A stretch of DNA of 64,000 nt from an archaeon (GCA_043814055.1 JBDRKL010000004.1:80518-144517), one strand, 5' to 3'. Shown: positions 1,276-35,248, numbered from the stretch's first letter. Numbers and translations are program-made. The notes: a model not told the origin generated them from the letters alone.

Positions 1276-1686
1276 ATGCCTTTTGAATATATTGAGCACG
1301 AGGCGGACATTGGAATTAAAGGAACGGGCAAGACAGTGGAAGAGGCCTTTGCAGAGGGAGCCAGGGCAATGTTCGGTATTATGGTTGATTTGGAAAAAGT
1401 TGACCCTGTCAAAAGAATTGAGGTTGAATGCGAAGCTGAAAACATCGGGTCTCTTTTTGTTGAATTTCTTAATGCCCTGCTCGCTCAAGTCAACATTGCA
1501 GAAATGTTCTTTTCAAAGTTTGAAGTTAAGATTGACGGTACTCATCTGACTGCAACTGCGTGGGGTGAGCAGATTGACCAGGAGAAGCACCAGACCAAGA
1601 TTGAAGTCAAGGCGGCGACTTTCTCTGGGTTGAAGTATGAAGAGAAAGATGGGGTTCACTCAATTCAGTGTGTGGTTGATGTGTAG
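1276..1686 (+). CDS. Archease (RtcB cofactor)
   Basis: EYIEHEADIGI N-terminus, EVKAATF C-terminal motif; adjacent to rtcB. Confidence 0.95.
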   Translation: MPFEYIEHEADIGIKGTGKTVEEAFAEGARAMFGIMVDLEKVDPVKRIEVECEAENIGSLFVEFLNALLAQVNIAEMFFSKFEVKIDGTHLTATAWGEQIDQEKHQTKIEVKAATFSGLKYEEKDGVHSIQCVVDV

Positions 1687-1690
1687 AGTT

Positions 1691-1773
1691 AACCAAAGGC
1701 AATCAAATGGCTTGGTAAAGTCACAGCTTCATTTATTTCTTGTGGCTTGCTCTTCCTCCGCGAGCAGGCGGAG
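1691..1773 (+). repeat. Multi-hairpin repeat element (type A)
   Basis: Aligns along its length with 32362-32444; GGTA 1714-17, stem AAGTCACA/TGTGGCTT, 15-nt loop, 7-nt linker, CTCCGCGAGCAGGCGGAG 1756-1773. Confidence 0.85.
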
Positions 1774-1856
1774 AAGTCAAGGCGGCGACTTTCTCTGGGC
1801 TGAAATATGAGGAGAAGGACGGGGTGTATTCAGTAATTTGTGTTTTGGATGTATAA
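1773..1856 (+). pseudogene. Diverged duplicate of the last 28 codons of archease
   Basis: EVKAATFSGLKYEEKDGVYSVICVLDV* vs EVKAATFSGLKYEEKDGVHSIQCVVDV* (1603-1686); first 27 bp identical. Confidence 0.92.
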
Positions 1857-2247: not shown

Positions 2248-3690
2248 ATGGACCTTACCTTGAAGCAAACCGAAGAGCTAGTATGGGAGCTCCCAAAAAC
2301 TGGCGAAATGCTTGTTCCTGGAAGAATCTACGGCGACGAAGAAATCGTGAAGCACCTTAACAATGACGTGAAAGCCGGAAAGGACTGGAACGCTCTGAAG
2401 CAGGTTTACAACGTGGCGTGCCTGCCAGGAATTCAAAAAGCGTCGCTCGCGATGCCAGACGTGCACCCAGGATATGGCTTTCCAATCGGCGGTGTCGGGG
2501 CATTTGACACTGAAACCGGGGTAATTTCAGTTGCAGGAGTTGGCTTTGATATCAACTGCGGAGTCCGGACTTTAAAGACACCGCTCAAAAAGGATGATGT
2601 TGAAAAGAAAAAGAAAGAGCTCGCTGAAGTTTTATTCAGGGTAATCCCAGCTGGACTCGGCTCAACCGGCGACATCCGCCTGAGCATAGACCAGATTGAC
2701 GAAGTGCTGGTAAATGGTGCTAAGTACTCAGTAGAAAATGGATATGGCTTAAAGGAAGACCTTGAATTCATTGAAGAAAATGGAAAAATCGCAAATGCAA
2801 ATCCTGAGAATGTCTCACGAACCGCGAAGCAGAGGCAGTTCAAGCAGATAGGCACGCTCGGCTCTGGGAATCATTATCTTGAAGTGCAGTATGTTGATGA
2901 AATCTTTGACGAGGTGGCTGCAAAAGCATATGGGCTGGAAAAAGGCCAAATCCTGGTTTCAATTCACTGCGGCTCCCGCGCGCTCGGCCACCAAATCGGA
3001 ACTGACTACCTCAAAACTTTGGAAGCTGCGTCAAAGAAATACAAAATCCCAATCCGCGAGAAAGAGCTTGTATGCGCCCCGTTCACGAGCGAAGAGGGCC
3101 AGCAGTACTTCACCGCAATGAACTGCGGAATAAACTGCGCGTTTGCGAACCGCCAGGCGCTTGCTCACTTGACGCGGAAGGGTTTCACAGAAGTATTTGG
3201 TCTTGGAGAAAAAGAAGTTGAAACCTTTTACGAAATCGGGCATAATACCTGCAAGCTTGAGGAGCACGACGGCAAAAAGCTCATCGTGCACAGGAAAGGC
3301 GCAACAAGAGCGTTCGGCCCTGGGCGAAAAGAAGTGCCGAAAAAATACCGAGAAATCGGCCAGCCAGTCCTGGTCGGCGGGACAATGGGGACGTGCTCTT
3401 ACATACTCCACGGGACTCAGAAAGGGATGGACGAGACCTTCGGAAGCGCGTGCCACGGGGCAGGGAGAAATATGAGCCGCCAGCAGGCCAAGCGCGAGTA
3501 CTTCGGGGAAACAGTTATAAAAGAGCTCGCCGCAAAGGGCATAATAATCAAGGGTCATTCAAAGTCCGGAGTTTCAGAGGAAGCGCCAGGTGCCTACAAG
3601 GACGTTACTGAAGTGGTTGACGTAATGCATACTTCAGGAATTGCGAAGAAAGTTGTGAAAGTTAAACCTTTAATATCAATAAAGGGATAG
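2248..3690 (+). CDS. rtcB: RNA-splicing ligase RtcB
   Basis: PDVHPGYG, DINCG, GNHY, HCGSR, HRKGA, HGAGR motifs. Confidence 0.97.
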   Translation: MDLTLKQTEELVWELPKTGEMLVPGRIYGDEEIVKHLNNDVKAGKDWNALKQVYNVACLPGIQKASLAMPDVHPGYGFPIGGVGAFDTETGVISVAGVGFDINCGVRTLKTPLKKDDVEKKKKELAEVLFRVIPAGLGSTGDIRLSIDQIDEVLVNGAKYSVENGYGLKEDLEFIEENGKIANANPENVSRTAKQRQFKQIGTLGSGNHYLEVQYVDEIFDEVAAKAYGLEKGQILVSIHCGSRALGHQIGTDYLKTLEAASKKYKIPIREKELVCAPFTSEEGQQYFTAMNCGINCAFANRQALAHLTRKGFTEVFGLGEKEVETFYEIGHNTCKLEEHDGKKLIVHRKGATRAFGPGRKEVPKKYREIGQPVLVGGTMGTCSYILHGTQKGMDETFGSACHGAGRNMSRQQAKREYFGETVIKELAAKGIIIKGHSKSGVSEEAPGAYKDVTEVVDVMHTSGIAKKVVKVKPLISIKG

Positions 3691-3706
3691 GGGGTGAAAA
3701 AAAATT

Positions 3707-3805
3707 ATGCAGGACGATGATGAAGATTATCCAAGGGATCTTGAGGATCTAGATGACCTGGAAAACCTGGATGATGTAACCGACCCATGCGACGGTTCTA
3801 TTTAA
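3707..3805 (+). CDS. Putative 32-aa acidic micropeptide
   Basis: MQDDDEDYPRDLEDLDDLENLDDVTDPCDGSI*, 15/32 D/E, preceded by GGGGTGA RBS right after the rtcB stop; not in ORF track. Confidence 0.55.
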   Translation: MQDDDEDYPRDLEDLDDLENLDDVTDPCDGSI

Positions 3806-3925
3806 TAAAATTCTCTGCGCGGGCAGTTGGCGAAGTTTAATATTCAATTACTTCGGAGTAGCCGGCGCTAACAATAGCTCCAAAGCAAGATTTATTAATT
3901 ACTACTGCTCATTCCTACTGAAACC

Positions 3926-4567
3926 ATGATAAAGTCAATAAAAAACTTTATGTTCAGGATGTCCGCGACCCAGATAATCGCAGGCATCATCCTATTGGCA
4001 TCCGTCCTCATATTCGTGCTTTTCTCTGCAATATCATCCGCCTCAGGCATTGGCAGCCATCCGATATTTGGGTTTCTCCTGCTCTGTTTTCTGCTCCTGC
4101 TCACGCGGCTTTCAATCCTTGTCAAGGTCGGAATCGGGTTTGTGAACATAATACTCCTCCCTGTAACAATGTATTATGGCCTACTACCTGCGTTTGCAAT
4201 GATACTCCTTACCAGCTACATTTACATAAAAATCGCGACCAGGCCAACCCCGATTGACTTCTTAATCACAAAGGGCGTGCAGGGCGCAATCGCCCAGTCA
4301 ATTTACTTCTCAATCTGGGTGCTAACTATCCACTTGATGTTCAAGTTTGTGAGCTTTGAGTACTTCTTCATCCACTTGACTTTCATGTATATGCTCTGCA
4401 TTGCAATCTACATAATTTACATGGTGCCAGCTCTTCACATTATCGCGCTTGACCCTCTCCCAATCACGCTGGTCAATGGAATGATGATGATGGCGGTTCA
4501 GTTCATACTCATAACCCTAACCGGGAGCAGCTTTTTTATGTTTGTTAAGTCGCTTGCCGGAGTCTAG
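3926..4567 (+). CDS. Hypothetical multi-pass membrane protein
   Basis: 213 aa, about 6 hydrophobic segments. Confidence 0.7.
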   Translation: MIKSIKNFMFRMSATQIIAGIILLASVLIFVLFSAISSASGIGSHPIFGFLLLCFLLLLTRLSILVKVGIGFVNIILLPVTMYYGLLPAFAMILLTSYIYIKIATRPTPIDFLITKGVQGAIAQSIYFSIWVLTIHLMFKFVSFEYFFIHLTFMYMLCIAIYIIYMVPALHIIALDPLPITLVNGMMMMAVQFILITLTGSSFFMFVKSLAGV

Positions 4568-31888: not shown

Positions 31889-31910
31889 TTCTATAAGACA
31901 CCATATTACT

Positions 31911-31975
31911 TGCAGTGAAGAAGTGAACACCCTCTGATACCGCCCAAAGATGATGAGTATGGTAGCTTCTGAGCA
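31911..31975 (+). ncRNA. Archaeal box C/D methylation guide sRNA
   Basis: TGC-A-[C GTGAAGA 31915-21]-12 nt-[D' CTGA 31934-37]-12 nt-[C' ATGATGA 31950-56]-12 nt-[D CTGA 31969-72]-GCA; terminal TGC/GCA stem. Confidence 0.8.
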
Positions 31976-32036
31976 CTCAATGATTTTTTGGTCCAGCTTT
32001 TGCGCGAGTTTTGCGAGCGGAAAAGGTGGGTGCCAG

Positions 32037-32084
32037 CACCCTCTGATACCGCCCAAAGATGATGAGTATGGTAGCTTCTGAGCA
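32037..32084 (+). repeat. Exact 48-bp duplicate of the sRNA 3' part
   Basis: Identical to 31928-31975. Confidence 0.97.
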
Positions 32085-32169
32085 ATCTTTTTCCTTCCAA
32101 TTTATCAAAAACGTCGGACGCACAGCGTCCGAGGCCAACGCGCTTCGCGCGTCTGGAGCTTGACCAAAA

Positions 32170-32564
32170 ACAGTGCTGCTGCTTGATGTTTTTGAAGCAG
32201 CACGTGGCCGCTCTCCGCGGCCAGGCGGAGATAGCAGTAGCTTCTGAGCAATCGTTTTCACAAACTTCTATTGAGGCTTCGCCGATGGCGAATGCCTCTG
32301 CTCTGCCTCCGCGAGCAGGCGGAGCTTCTGAGCAATCTAAACTTTTATTTTTCACAAATTTGACCGAAGGCACCCGAATGGCTTGGTAATGCCACAGCAT
32401 CACCAATTTTATGTGGCATGCTCTGCCTCCGCGAGCAGGCGGAGCTTCTGAGCAATCTAAACTTTTATTTTTCACAAATTTGACCGAAGGCATCCTACTT
32501 GCTCGGTAGTCCCGCAGCATCAAAAATTTCTTGCGGGACAAAGTGCCGCCTGATTTTTCAGGCG
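32170..32564 (+). repeat. Tandem cluster of four hairpin elements separated by copies of the sRNA 3' end AGCTTCTGAGCAATC
   Basis: Terminal hairpins at 32213-30, 32307-24, 32427-44, 32547-64; 74-bp exact repeat 32299-32372 = 32419-32492 (period 120). Confidence 0.9.
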
Positions 32565-32567
32565 AAC

Positions 32568-32581
32568 GAAAGCTTTATATA
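32568..32581 (+). promoter_or_regulatory. BRE/TATA promoter upstream of hairpin array
   Basis: GAAAGC-TTTATATA; no ORF follows within 370 nt. Confidence 0.6.
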
Positions 32582-32604
32582 CCCTCACGGATTACTAGAT
32601 TTCC

Positions 32605-32915
32605 CCTCCGGGGGTCTGACTGTATTGGGGAGGCATTTCCAATCTCTCAGAACAAGCTTGGGTTGAGGTGGGATCTGTGAAAGCCTTCGGGCTTACATGG
32701 AATTTATCTTGACCCACTCTAAGATTGGACTGGGTGGGGGAACGCGAAACCTTCGGGCGACGCGCAATTCAACCCGGTCCACTCTAAACTTGGATTGGGG
32801 TTGGACATGTAAAATTTTCGGATTTTATGCGAAAGATCTCAATCCACTCTAACCTGGACCAGGTGGGAGAGCGCGAAAGTTTCGGCAGACGCGTAATTTA
32901 ACTTGGTCCACTCTT
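32605..32915 (+). ncRNA. Putative novel structured RNA with four tandem covarying UUCG hairpins
   Basis: Units 32659-716, 32726-781, 32791-846, 32855-910; each TGG...TTCG...CCA followed by CTCT(AA); G-U pairs favour plus strand; ends approximate. Confidence 0.75.
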
Positions 32916-32955: not shown

Positions 32956-34317
32956 ATGGACTCCATCCTTAAAGAGGTTCTCAAGCGGGCTACGCCGACC
33001 GAGGCAGAGCACAAGAAATTGGAAAGCTTTGCCCAGCAGGTTGTCAGGAAACTCAAGGCAGCCGGCTACAGGGCAGACGTAGAGGGCTCTATCGCAAAGG
33101 ACACCTGGGTTTCAGGCACGCACGATGTTGATATTTTCATGTTTTTTGAGCCAGGAGTTCCAAGAAGCAAACTGGAAAAGGATGGCATAGCAGCTGGCAA
33201 GAAAATCATAAAAGGGCTCGGCGGCAGCCCAGTGATTGCGTATGCCGAGCACCCTTATGTGAAAGGTGCTATTGGGAATTTCAACCTTGATATAGTCCCC
33301 TGCTATTCAATCAAAAAGACCGAGGAGCTTCAGTCCGCGGTTGACAGGACACCGTTCCACACCGCTTACATAAAGAAAAACCTCACCAAAAAGCAGATGG
33401 GTGAGACGCGCCTGCTCAAGCAATTTATGAAAGGCGTCGGCGTGTACAGCGCCAAGGAAAAAGTGCGCGGCTTTTCAGGTTATCTCTGCGAGCTTTTAAT
33501 CCTTGAGTACAAGGACTTCATGGGCGTTGTGAGAGCTGCCAAGAACTGGAAGTACGGCACGGTCATAGACCTAGAAAAGTTCTACAAGGGCAGGGAGGCA
33601 TTTAACCTGTTCAAGCACTCCCTCGTCGTGATAGACCCAATAGACAAGGACAGGAATGTTGCAGCCGCGGTTGAGAATGACAACTTTGAGCGTTTTTCAT
33701 TTGCGTGCAGCGAGTTCCTCGCGAAGCCGTCTAAAAAATTCTTTTACCCTGAAAATGTTCAAGTTCTTAGCAAAGGCGAGTTGAAAAAGAAACTTGAAAA
33801 GCACGGCGAACTATTCGTGGTCAAGTTTAAGACGCCAAAACTCATAGAGGACATTCTTTATTCTCAATTGAGGCGCAGTTTGGCTTCCTTAGTTAGGGCT
33901 GTGAAGGAAGAAGATTTTGAGGTTATTGACTCGGCGTTCCACTCCGATGAGTATTCATATTTCTTACTTGAGCTAAAAACTGCAAAGCTACCGGGGATTA
34001 AAAAGCTTGACGGCCCTCCAATCCAGATAAGTCAGGAACACCAAAAAAAATTCACGGACAAGTACAAGAAGCAAAAGCCATGGGTGGAGAAAGGCCGCTG
34101 GTATGTTGAAGTTCCTAGGGAATATGTCCAAGCTGTAAAGTTGCTCAAGCAGTTGCTCTCAAATCCGCGGCAGATTGGGATTGGAAAATATATATCAGAC
34201 AGTCTTAAGAAAGATTATAAAATCCTTTCAGGCTCAGAATTGTCTAAGGAATACAAGGAAGAATTTGCAACGTTTTTAACGCAGTACTTGGTCAAGAAGA
34301 ACTCCTGGAATTGGTAA
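32956..34317 (+). CDS. cca: Archaeal class I CCA-adding enzyme
   Basis: VEGSIAKDTW..HDVDIF, YAEHPY, DIVPCY, AVDRTPFH, GFSGYLCELL, DPIDKDRNVAAAV. Confidence 0.97.
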   Translation: MDSILKEVLKRATPTEAEHKKLESFAQQVVRKLKAAGYRADVEGSIAKDTWVSGTHDVDIFMFFEPGVPRSKLEKDGIAAGKKIIKGLGGSPVIAYAEHPYVKGAIGNFNLDIVPCYSIKKTEELQSAVDRTPFHTAYIKKNLTKKQMGETRLLKQFMKGVGVYSAKEKVRGFSGYLCELLILEYKDFMGVVRAAKNWKYGTVIDLEKFYKGREAFNLFKHSLVVIDPIDKDRNVAAAVENDNFERFSFACSEFLAKPSKKFFYPENVQVLSKGELKKKLEKHGELFVVKFKTPKLIEDILYSQLRRSLASLVRAVKEEDFEVIDSAFHSDEYSYFLLELKTAKLPGIKKLDGPPIQISQEHQKKFTDKYKKQKPWVEKGRWYVEVPREYVQAVKLLKQLLSNPRQIGIGKYISDSLKKDYKILSGSELSKEYKEEFATFLTQYLVKKNSWNW

Positions 34318-34318
34318 C

Positions 34319-34465
34319 TTAAATTTCTTCCTCTTCCACTGGAGTATCGTCTTGATCGTCGTTATATTCTTCGCTAGACTCACTGTCATCTTCCCAAAGA
34401 TCTTCGTCGCCCTCTAGCTCATCTTCTTTTTCTTCGTCTTCAAGATAATCATCGTCCACCACCAT
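34319..34465 (-). CDS. 48-aa hyper-acidic micropeptide
   Basis: MVVDDDYLEDEEKEDELEGDEDLWEDDSESSEEYNDDQDDTPVEEEEI*, 28/48 D/E, GAGGTGGTG RBS; not in ORF track. Confidence 0.7.
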   Translation of the reverse strand: MVVDDDYLEDEEKEDELEGDEDLWEDDSESSEEYNDDQDDTPVEEEEI

Positions 34466-34549
34466 TAACACCACCTCAAAGTTTTTTGAACTGGGCTTCG
34501 TAATTACATAAATAGTTTATAAACCTTTCTAATTCCCAAAAAATAGAAA

Positions 34550-34567
34550 GGCGGCCCGGAGGCCGCC
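34550..34567 (-). terminator. GC hairpin plus U-tract downstream of basic peptide gene
   Basis: Minus strand GGCGGCC-TCCG-GGCCGCC followed by TTTCTATTTTT. Confidence 0.55.
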
Positions 34568-34587
34568 AACATTATCACAAACTTCGT

Positions 34588-34689
34588 TTATCTCTTCTTT
34601 TTTGTTGTCTTTTTCTTGGCGGCCTTTCTCTTCACGGTTCTCTTCTTTACCGCCTTTTTCTTTACAGCTTTTTTCTTTTTTGCAGGCAT
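34588..34689 (-). CDS. 33-aa lysine-rich (histone H1/HC2-like) micropeptide
   Basis: MPAKKKKAVKKKAVKKRTVKRKAAKKKTTKKKR*, 20/33 K/R, GGAGGTG RBS; not in ORF track. Confidence 0.75.
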   Translation of the reverse strand: MPAKKKKAVKKKAVKKRTVKRKAAKKKTTKKKR

Positions 34690-34765
34690 GTTACACCTCC
34701 AGGTGTTCAACTTGAGTATCAAGTTGTTAATAGAAAATAACTACGCTTTACTTATAAACTTTTTC

Positions 34766-35194
34766 TTATTCCAATTTTTTCTCTTCTTGCAATTCAATCA
34801 GCTCTTCAAACCTTTTTCCGTCGGTGTAAGCGAATTTTTTTGACACTTTGAAATTTTTTCCTTTTGTGTATTGTATCTTTCCAATGTCCAAAAATACCCA
34901 ATCGCGCCCTTCAAACCTTACCGCGACGTATGGAATTGCGCCGAATGTCTGCGCGAACGTGACGAGCTTTACAATTTCATCATAAGTTAAATGAACATAA
35001 TCTTGAGTGCTTGACTTGGACTCAATTGCGAAATACTTCTCGCCGTTCCCTGCGACAACGTCGGGGCAGGGGCGCCTTGAGACCCCTGAGCCTGGGCCGC
35101 GTAGCGCAGCATAGCCATTGTTCCAGAACATTTCAATCAGCTCTCGCTCGGCGTTAGTTCCTTTTTGGTAGCGGTACTTGAGTTTTGTTGCCAT
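34766..35194 (-). CDS. hjc: Holliday junction resolvase Hjc
   Basis: YQKGTNAEREL, PDVVAG, AIESKS; start 35194 inferred. Confidence 0.93.
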   Translation of the reverse strand: MATKLKYRYQKGTNAERELIEMFWNNGYAALRGPGSGVSRRPCPDVVAGNGEKYFAIESKSSTQDYVHLTYDEIVKLVTFAQTFGAIPYVAVRFEGRDWVFLDIGKIQYTKGKNFKVSKKFAYTDGKRFEELIELQEEKKLE

Positions 35195-35248
35195 CACTTC
35201 AGGTAGGTTTCCGCAATTCTTATATCTCACTATGTACTAAAATAATAC

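Follow-up and report, generated by a model that had tools for sequence, protein, structure and literature searches.

Between hjc, the gene for the archaeal Holliday junction resolvase, and the convergent cca, the gene for the CCA-adding enzyme, an uncultured Undinarchaeota archaeon carries two very short open reading frames (ORFs) on the same strand whose predicted products have extreme and opposite charges. This arrangement raises the question of whether the two ORFs are genuine genes and, if they are, whether they constitute a functional pair. We analyzed a 64,000-nt stretch of DNA, the window, corresponding to contig C4:80518-144517 of this 0.98-Mb, 82% complete genome. The best explanation of what we observed, which we hold to be probable although well short of certain, is that the two ORFs are genuine, independently promoted and separable micro-genes in a variable hjc-cca slot, one encoding a conserved polyanion and the other a minimal lysine-repeat polycation.

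Two micro-ORFs and their predicted expression signals

An earlier note on this DNA had described two same-strand ORFs at 34319-34689, each with a strong ribosome-binding site and separated by a GC hairpin with a U-tract, the second encoding 48 residues, 28 of them acidic. This description proved accurate, with exact coordinates: both ORFs are on the minus strand, both ribosome-binding sites are complementary to the 3' end of the organism's own 16S rRNA, the hairpin and tract lie at 34567-34540, and the count of acidic residues is 13 D plus 15 E. The features of the locus are as follows.

34319..34465, minus strand: acidic micro-gene, 48 codons plus stop (ATG at 34465, stop at 34321-34319), product MVVDDDYLEDEEKEDELEGDEDLWEDDSESSEEYNDDQDDTPVEEEEI
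34588..34689, minus strand: basic micro-gene, 33 codons plus stop (ATG at 34689, stop TAA at 34590-34588), product MPAKKKKAVKKKAVKKRTVKRKAAKKKTTKKKR
34472..34477, minus strand: Shine-Dalgarno (SD) sequence GAGGTG of the acidic gene, 6 nt 5' of its ATG
34694..34700, minus strand: SD sequence GGAGGTG of the basic gene, 4 nt 5' of its ATG, complementary to the 16S rRNA 3' end
34540..34567, minus strand: terminator-like hairpin GGCGGCC-UCCG-GGCCGCC with the U-rich tract UUUCUAUUUU (in DNA, GGCGGCC-TCCG-GGCCGCC with TTTCTATTTT)
34708..34726, minus strand: 8-bp hairpin CAACTTGA-TAC-TCAAGTTG in the predicted 5' leader of the basic gene, from RNA folding
34759-34752, minus strand: TATA-like box GTTTATAA of the basic gene, predicted from sequence, within direct-repeat copy A
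34524-34517, minus strand: second TATA-like box GTTTATAA, of the acidic gene, predicted from sequence
34752..34774, minus strand: direct-repeat copy A TTGGAATAAGAAAAAGTTTATAA, holding the hjc stop codon (34768-34766) and the TATA-like box
34505..34539, minus strand: direct-repeat copy B TTGGGAATTAGAAAGGTTTATAA (34539-34517) and the conserved promoter block TTAGAAAGGTTTATAAACTATTTATGTA (34532-34505), from the repeat search and from relatives
34766..35230, minus strand: hjc (Pfam PF01870, E 2.8e-29)
32956..34317, plus strand: cca, convergent (Pfam PF09249, PF21133, PF01909)

Both SD sites are perfect complements of 6-7 nt because the 16S rRNA of this genome ends in ...GATCACCTCCT. Genome-wide, six-base SD matches precede 11.8% of crudely called long ORFs, compared with 1.4% of random 18-mers (~8-fold). 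Ahead of start codons, TATA-like hexamers are most frequent at -40..-21, as would be expected of leaderless genes, and they show a shoulder at -80..-50 that fits both leadered, SD-bearing micro-genes. The inter-ORF hairpin, with its 7-bp GC stem, occurs once in the genome and, with the U-tract, is likely to form the 3' end of the basic transcript. At the level of these signals, both ORFs have the appearance of genuine genes, each with its own promoter. The alternative starts TTG 34722 (basic) and GTG 34474 (acidic) were judged unlikely because each ATG is preceded by its SD site and the GTG is itself part of one. We also dismissed a Phe/Leu-rich antisense ORF (34616..34843, plus strand), which mirrors the Lys codons and has no SD-like sequence before its TTG start.

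The basic micro-gene lies directly downstream of hjc, whose stop codon is TAA and whose public gene call (P0002) takes an internal ATG as the start, yielding 142 residues. A gap of 122 nt separates the basic and acidic ORFs, and 1 nt separates the stops of the acidic ORF and cca. An Rfam search of 34200-34900 returned no RNA family.

The basic peptide comprises 33 residues with 17 K, 3 R and neither D nor E (net charge +20), and its gene consists of five 15-nt units encoding the pentapeptide K-[AT]-[VAT]-K-[KR], which differ from one another mostly at synonymous or conservative sites. The acidic peptide has a net charge of -27, and just 4 of the genome's 13,627 six-frame ORFs with 20 or more residues reach a D/E fraction of 0.42. 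AlphaFold2 modelling of the acidic peptide (predicted local distance difference test 61, predicted template modelling score 0.13) yielded nearly no secondary structure, with a single 3-residue helical turn, and we accordingly describe it as a predicted intrinsically disordered polyanion with no predicted fold.

Neither peptide is represented in the databases that we searched. Word-index homology searches returned no match for either, and phmmer, run with the basic peptide on 1.84 billion representative proteins, returned a single low-complexity match of 817 residues and no relatives. Exact look-ups of ten peptides, those of the window and of its relatives in species-representative genomes, found none on record in a collection of 15 billion proteins; an exact look-up of cca likewise gave no match, and a metagenome scan with hjc recovered one 1.2-kb fragment. 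Gene callers skipped the two ORFs of the window and their relatives in the species-representative genomes, and solely the acidic ORF of the metagenomic locus L158 was called in its assembly. Genes this small and this biased in composition routinely escape gene callers. Pfam and NCBIfam hold no family for either window peptide. For the acidic peptide there was no Pfam match at E <= 0.01, and for its L158 orthologue none at E <= 1, with PF03247 (prothymosin-alpha/parathymosin) and PF05160 (DSS1/SEM1) unmatched; the basic peptide did not match PF07382 (Hc2) even at E <= 10, and Pfam detected no winged-helix globular domain of linker histone H1/H5 in its 33 residues of lysine repeats.

Conservation of the acidic gene and the lysine-repeat class

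The acidic gene occupies the same slot and strand in six loci representing at least three lineages: the window, genomes G012, G004 and G008, and the metagenomic loci L158 and L166. Profile searches of 17 species-representative genomes of the phylum identified an acidic orthologue in four, namely our genome and all three of family f5 (G012, G004 and G008), and nowhere else in those genomes. In f5 the orthologue spans 39 codons in the hjc-cca gap, retains its TATA box and SD site, and has a promoter that abuts the hjc stop codon. Metagenomic relatives, including L158 and L166, were reached via hjc homologues in a large protein collection. L158 (hjc 79% identical) encodes a 49-residue orthologue, MADDDYFKKEEKEKDFDEDDELWEDDDEKSEEQKEKEDKYDYEEEEEEE, that is 51% identical to that of the window, and L166 (hjc 66% identical) encodes an 18-residue version, MVDDEDLWGEEDDSDEPW, so that the orthologues range from 18 to 49 residues.

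An SD site is present before the acidic ORF in all orthologues, and the spacing between SD and ATG is kept in the six loci. The D/E-rich frame also retains an aromatic anchor, which takes the form [DE]3-L-W-[EG]-[DE]2-D in three lineages and, in f5 as a fourth, the form S/N-F-E...N-Y. Substitutions point to purifying selection in this frame. Between G012 and G008 the proportion of synonymous differences (pS) was 0.44 and that of non-synonymous differences (pN) 0.067, a ratio of 0.15 (Fisher p 3e-4), compared with a ratio of 3.65 in the +1 frame. Between the window and L158 the values were pS 0.78, which is saturated, and pN 0.28 (pN/pS 0.36, p 3e-5). Despite this saturation of synonymous sites, the 28-nt promoter block TTAGAAAGGTTTATAAACTATTTATGTA is identical at 27 of 28 positions between the window and L158, and L166 and L168 contain related TTAGAAA...TTTATAA boxes. 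With slot, strand, SD site and ATG, D/E-rich frame, aromatic anchor and in-frame purifying selection all found, we take the hjc-cca acidic micro-protein to be a real, fast-evolving gene for a disordered polyanion and propose it as a new Undinarchaeota family.

Relatives of the basic gene were found by codon-pattern searches of the phylum genomes and then of 400 further archaeal genomes; relaxed lysine-codon patterns were swamped by off-frame matches in Glu/Lys-rich genes. Within the phylum, genome G016 (locus L055), from a different order, contains a 33-codon ORF, MAVKKKAKKKTTTKKKVTKKKKTTKKKVTKKKR, preceded by the SD sequence AGGAGGT. It equals the basic peptide in length, shares its M-x-x-KKK start and TKKKR* end, and is identical to it at 18 of 33 positions (composition-shuffle p 0.008). 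Stand-alone (KKKTT/KKKTV/KKKPV)n genes encoding 44-103 residues were found in several archaeal genomes of 0.6-1.3 Mb (L099, L100, L102 and L105). Those of L099 (G192, 1501-1776, minus strand, 91 residues) and L100 (G154, 1501-1803, minus strand, 100 residues) consist almost entirely of KKKTT/KKKTV units and are syntenic, each lying between lon and a TldD-like gene in two genera that belong to the same family; the G192 and G154 proteins are absent from the protein collection. For the archaeal lysine-repeat proteins of 100-103 residues, the nearest Pfam family is Hc2 (PF07382), at 10.1-10.7 bits against a gathering score of 40 bits. L166 encodes a lysine-repeat protein of at least 85 residues, MVTKKKPVKKKKPV..., interrupted by a 100-N scaffold gap, in the same slot as the basic gene of the window.

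All these sequences (window, G016 L055, L099, L100, L102, L105 and L166) share an M-[APV]-x-K-K start, tandem units of K3-4 plus two small residues (A/V/T/P), the lack of D and E, and an SD site. We therefore class the basic gene, on these shared sequence features, as a minimal member of an uncatalogued (K3-4-x-x)n lysine-repeat class scattered in small archaeal genomes. In the reading that we prefer, the acidic gene is the older and more conserved of the two.

Lysine-rich runs are also common in the phylum as tails of larger proteins. In some Undinarchaeota (L038, G015:C3 457-1554; L068-L078, genomes G003 and G007), many housekeeping proteins bear long tails of this kind, examples being a succinyl-CoA-synthetase-alpha-like protein with (KKPA)n, a zinc-ribbon protein ending in KKKAKKKAKKKK, and S1/KH-type RNA-binding proteins. 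In f5, arginyl-tRNA synthetase (ArgRS) has an N-terminal extension of ~85 residues of lysine-rich repeats (MVIKNKKKSIKKKKMVKK...), intact in G012 (L153, G012:C5, 1..1734, minus strand); it recalls the tRNA-binding domains appended to eukaryotic synthetases. The G004 copy of the extension (L066, G004:C7, 1378..1740, minus strand) is split from ArgRS by a frame change, real or an assembly error; we accordingly rejected the resulting 102-residue lysine-rich ORF as a free gene, given that it corresponds to the ArgRS extension that is intact in G012.

A variable slot and a promoter-bearing direct repeat

The earlier note had made its pair model depend on co-conservation of the two ORFs, and this proved partial: the tandem behind hjc recurs in L166, but the acidic gene occurs alone in four loci, and basic genes occur alone in G016 and other archaea. 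The correspondence with L166 extends to architecture. There, a promoter (AAAGGTTTATAAC) overlapping the hjc stop is followed by an SD site (AGAGGTGA), the lysine-repeat gene, a GC hairpin (GCCTTTGCC-ATAT-GGCAAAGGC) with a T-rich tail in the same place as the inter-ORF hairpin of the window, a TTAGAAA...TTTAAATAAC box, an SD site (GGGGGTGATCAC) and the acidic ORF. In the hjc tree, L166 falls outside the well-supported clade of the window, L158 and L162. An initial view of the basic gene as a unique, lineage-specific insertion with accidental pairing was softened by this second tandem.

Across the six acidic-gene loci, the tandem is found in two (window and L166) and the acidic gene alone in four (G012, G004, G008 and L158). 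Around the G016 basic gene there is no acidic ORF within 1.5 kb on either side, and profile searches found none in the whole of that 72%-complete genome; the long lysine-repeat genes of other archaea have no acidic neighbor within the 3-kb loci examined. Lengths do not co-vary either, at 33/48 residues in the window and at least 85/18 in L166. Because the acidic gene occurs alone in four loci and lysine-repeat genes occur alone elsewhere, we consider the two genes separable rather than an obligate pair.

The hjc-cca gap itself is evidently a hot spot, a variable slot that holds different small genes in different relatives. In L158, an orphan gene for 97 residues lies between hjc and the acidic gene, and such orphans of 97-102 residues without a Pfam match recur in the slot of several close relatives, where they replace the lysine-repeat gene (L158 1700-1993, L161 2907-3200, L163 757-1008 and the P0008 contig), of which L161 and the P0008 contig have no acidic ORF. 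A 134-residue ORF fills the slot in another relative, and the gap is empty in L159/L160, G002 and G006. Directly after the hjc stop, G004 (L003, ~1415-1500) and G008 (L004, ~1905-1990) carry two different elements of 65-70 nt with CTTTGC...GCAAAG inverted termini, flanked by target duplications of 13 nt (TTCTGATTTATAG) and 11 nt, respectively, and G012 (L002, ~1480-1500), which belongs to the same genus, has the uninterrupted site. The tie to hjc of the micro-genes, each with a promoter of its own, is positional.

In the window, the basic cassette (~235 nt) is bracketed by the two copies of a 23-nt direct repeat, TTGGAATAAGAAAAAGTTTATAA (34774-34752) and TTGGGAATTAGAAAGGTTTATAA (34539-34517). 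By hand alignment the copies have 20 matching positions, two mismatches and two 1-nt gaps; the repeat search picked up their ungapped core at a spacing of 235. The pattern GGAAT.AGAAA.{1,3}TTTATA occurs twice in the genome, on either side of the basic cassette. The cassette may have been gained by an insertion that copied its target, the hjc tail plus promoter, or it may be prone to loss by recombination between the repeats, which would yield exactly the f5 arrangement. A bracketing repeat thus makes gain or loss possible and would explain why relatives occur with or without the basic gene. If so, the locus illustrates how micro-genes could gain or lose their place in a genome via short promoter-bearing direct repeats. 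We rejected a placement of f5 as the sister group of our genome, which is supported by hjc alone and not by cca, hsp20 or rtcB, and for which the backbone of the hjc tree is unresolved.

Functional interpretations and known systems

In the reading that we prefer, the acidic gene would be driven by a strongly conserved B recognition element/TATA-like promoter and carry an SD-bearing leader, and the basic gene would be driven from a separate TATA box that overlaps the hjc stop, with an SD site and, at the 3' end, a hairpin followed by a U-tract. Through its charge, the polycation could interact non-specifically with nucleic acids or other polyanions. The polyanion could act by charge as a decoy, or as a chaperone, toward basic nucleic-acid-binding proteins (histone-fold proteins, Alba, Hjc), and the lysine peptide, where present, may also be its client; the genome encodes three histone-fold proteins and Alba. 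Several points weigh against this reading. The functions suggested for both peptides derive from charge alone. Because the peptides are absent from public protein collections, support for both genes is wholly comparative, and homology of micro-peptides is hard to prove because their sequences are of low complexity: the f5 acidic ORFs align with that of the window at 21-28% identity, and the similarity between the G016 and window basic peptides is just modestly above that expected from composition. Moreover, the repeat may simply represent two promoters of the same type rather than a target duplication, because the TTAGAAA..TTTATAA motif is also present in relatives, and with this shared motif and the unresolved backbone of the hjc tree the basic gene may equally have been gained or lost.

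A closer functional tie between the two peptides was considered in two forms. We think it rather unlikely that they are the dedicated pair that the earlier note proposed as a minimal chromatin switch, in which a nucleoid-condensing polycation would be tuned by its own polyanion, acting as chaperone, antagonist or DNA mimic, via a high-affinity disordered polyelectrolyte complex. Net charges of opposite sign and comparable magnitude (+20 and -27) fit such a complex, as does the recurrence of the same order and architecture in L166, outside the clade of the window and L158, and separate promoters with a terminator between them would permit independent dosing. However, the second occurrence can be explained by shared ancestry or a common insertion hot spot, four loci have the acidic gene without a basic neighbor, the sole lysine-repeat sequence found in f5 is the ArgRS extension, G016 and other archaea have lysine-repeat genes with no acidic ORF in the DNA examined around them, and peptide lengths do not co-vary. 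A similarly doubtful variant is a linked disordered pair, in which the oligolysine would coat nucleic acids and the LW-anchored polyanion would titrate the oligolysine and perhaps histones or Alba; the pair would have been kept in two divergent lineages, and the polyanion retained for other clients where the polycation was lost. If true, the linked pair would be a prokaryotic counterpart of histone H1 and prothymosin-alpha in less than 400 bp. Borgia and co-workers reportedly described the disordered polyelectrolyte complex of these two proteins in 2018. Like them, the micro-peptides would combine a disordered polyanion with a disordered polycation of opposite, comparable net charge; unlike them, they are far shorter, are encoded by separable genes and have no sequence relationship to the eukaryotic proteins (no Pfam match).

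Three further explanations concern the acidic peptide or the reality of the ORFs. It is improbable, in our judgment, that the acidic peptide modulates Hjc or homologous recombination as a DNA mimic or DSS1/Sem1-like acidic-aromatic peptide, with the basic gene an unrelated passenger. The acidic gene does lie downstream of hjc on the same strand in 6 of 6 loci, with its f5 promoter abutting the hjc stop codon, and DNA mimics and DSS1 typically contain acidic stretches with W/F/Y anchors; the peptide resembles DSS1/Sem1 and small acidic DNA mimics in its shortness, its conserved aromatics (LW, F, Y) and the proximity of its gene to a recombination gene. Yet it has its own conserved promoter, other genes intervene between it and hjc (the 97-residue gene in L158, the lysine gene in the window and L166), it is missing from most hjc-bearing relatives (13 of 17 phylum genomes, plus L159-L161), and it matches neither DSS1_SEM1 (PF05160) nor any other Pfam family and has no predicted fold. 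We know of no eukaryote-type DSS1 partner in this organism. That one or both ORFs are untranslated, being chance frames in a purine-rich spacer or parts of non-coding hairpin cassettes whose conserved elements are RNA or promoter signals, seems very improbable. Such a view would accord with the behavior of gene callers, which called the L158 acidic ORF alone, with the small hairpin insertion elements directly seen in G004 and G008, and with the shortness and uniqueness of the basic ORF within its order, but it is at odds with the frame-specific substitutions in the acidic ORF, the SD-ATG spacing kept in six loci, lysine-repeat frames that stay open for 91-103 codons in other genomes, and the lack of an Rfam family match. 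Least probable of all is a role for the acidic peptide as the substrate of a RimK-family ATP-grasp ligase, receiving a poly-glutamate extension, or as a LysW-like carrier. Ribosomal protein S6 receives such an extension from RimK, and the 18-residue acidic ORF of L166 is followed immediately by the gene for a RimK-family alpha-L-glutamate ligase (TIGR00768, 202 bits against a cut-off of 143); in addition, the orthologues end in Glu runs (EEEEI, EEEEEEE, EDE), and their EDLWGE/EDLWED core resembles the EDWGE end of LysW. Small size, high acidity and the E-D-(L)-W-G/E-E motif are thus shared with known LysW/RimK substrates. Set against this, ligase adjacency is seen in one locus only, within a highly variable slot, the acidic peptides lack Cys and the LysW zinc ribbon (PF21344), the W-containing motif is internal rather than C-terminal, and the sole strong match to the L166 ligase in our genome (33% identity) belongs to a canonical LysW-LysX/Y/Z/J cluster elsewhere.

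That cluster lies on contig C12 (~148375-151500) and comprises a canonical LysW (54 residues, PF21344, E 6.9e-14, ending in EEDWGE) followed by LysX/ArgX-, LysY-, LysZ- and LysJ-like genes, by virtue of which this small genome keeps a carrier-protein-mediated Lys/Arg pathway. The L166 ligase occupies 3635-4465 (plus strand), between the acidic ORF and cca, with its true start probably ~45 nt earlier.

Returning to the two separable micro-genes, the H1-like character that the earlier note had assigned to the basic peptide is confirmed at the level of composition, which is that of an H1 tail or Hc2. Like the H1 C-terminal tail, chlamydial Hc2/HctB (PF07382) and Pseudomonas AlgP, the peptide is extremely rich in lysine, with A/V/T/P spacers in short tandem units, has no acidic residues and no predicted fold, and presumably binds polyanions by charge. 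It differs from them in its length of 33 residues, in having no globular domain and no significant Pfam match, in its absence from protein databases, and in being archaeal, encoded in a genome already holding histones and Alba. One study reports an action of AlgP on polyphosphate granules (PMC9239181). The ribosomal proteins eL41/eS32 and bS22 are similar to the basic peptide in size (25-38 residues) and extreme positive charge, but they are Arg/Lys-mixed and non-repetitive, and the basic peptide has no Pfam match to them. Visual inspection suggested a separate eL41-like ORF on contig C5, for which Pfam gave no confirmation.

What is new at this locus is chiefly the conserved acidic micro-protein, together with the promoter-bearing repeats on either side of the basic cassette. 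The acidic peptide, if it is real, would represent a conserved polyanion, 18-49 residues long and equipped with a promoter, in an archaeal phylum with reduced genomes; to our knowledge, it has no described archaeal counterpart. The basic peptide, in turn, would add to the evidence for free 'tail-only' polycations beside histones and Alba in ultra-small archaea. Although the organism is uncultured, charge-driven binding, mutual neutralization and effects on Hjc or histones are testable in vitro because both peptides are short enough to synthesize.

Two observations were made elsewhere in the window. Directly behind rtcB (2248-3690), a second acidic micro-ORF at 3707-3805 (plus strand), MQDDDEDYPRDLEDLDDLENLDDVTDPCDGSI (32 residues, 47% D/E), follows the SD-like sequence GGGGGTGA; no counterpart was found downstream of rtcB in ten relatives. 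Upstream of cca, the stretch 31900-32900 is non-coding and rich in repeats, including a 120-nt tandem pair.

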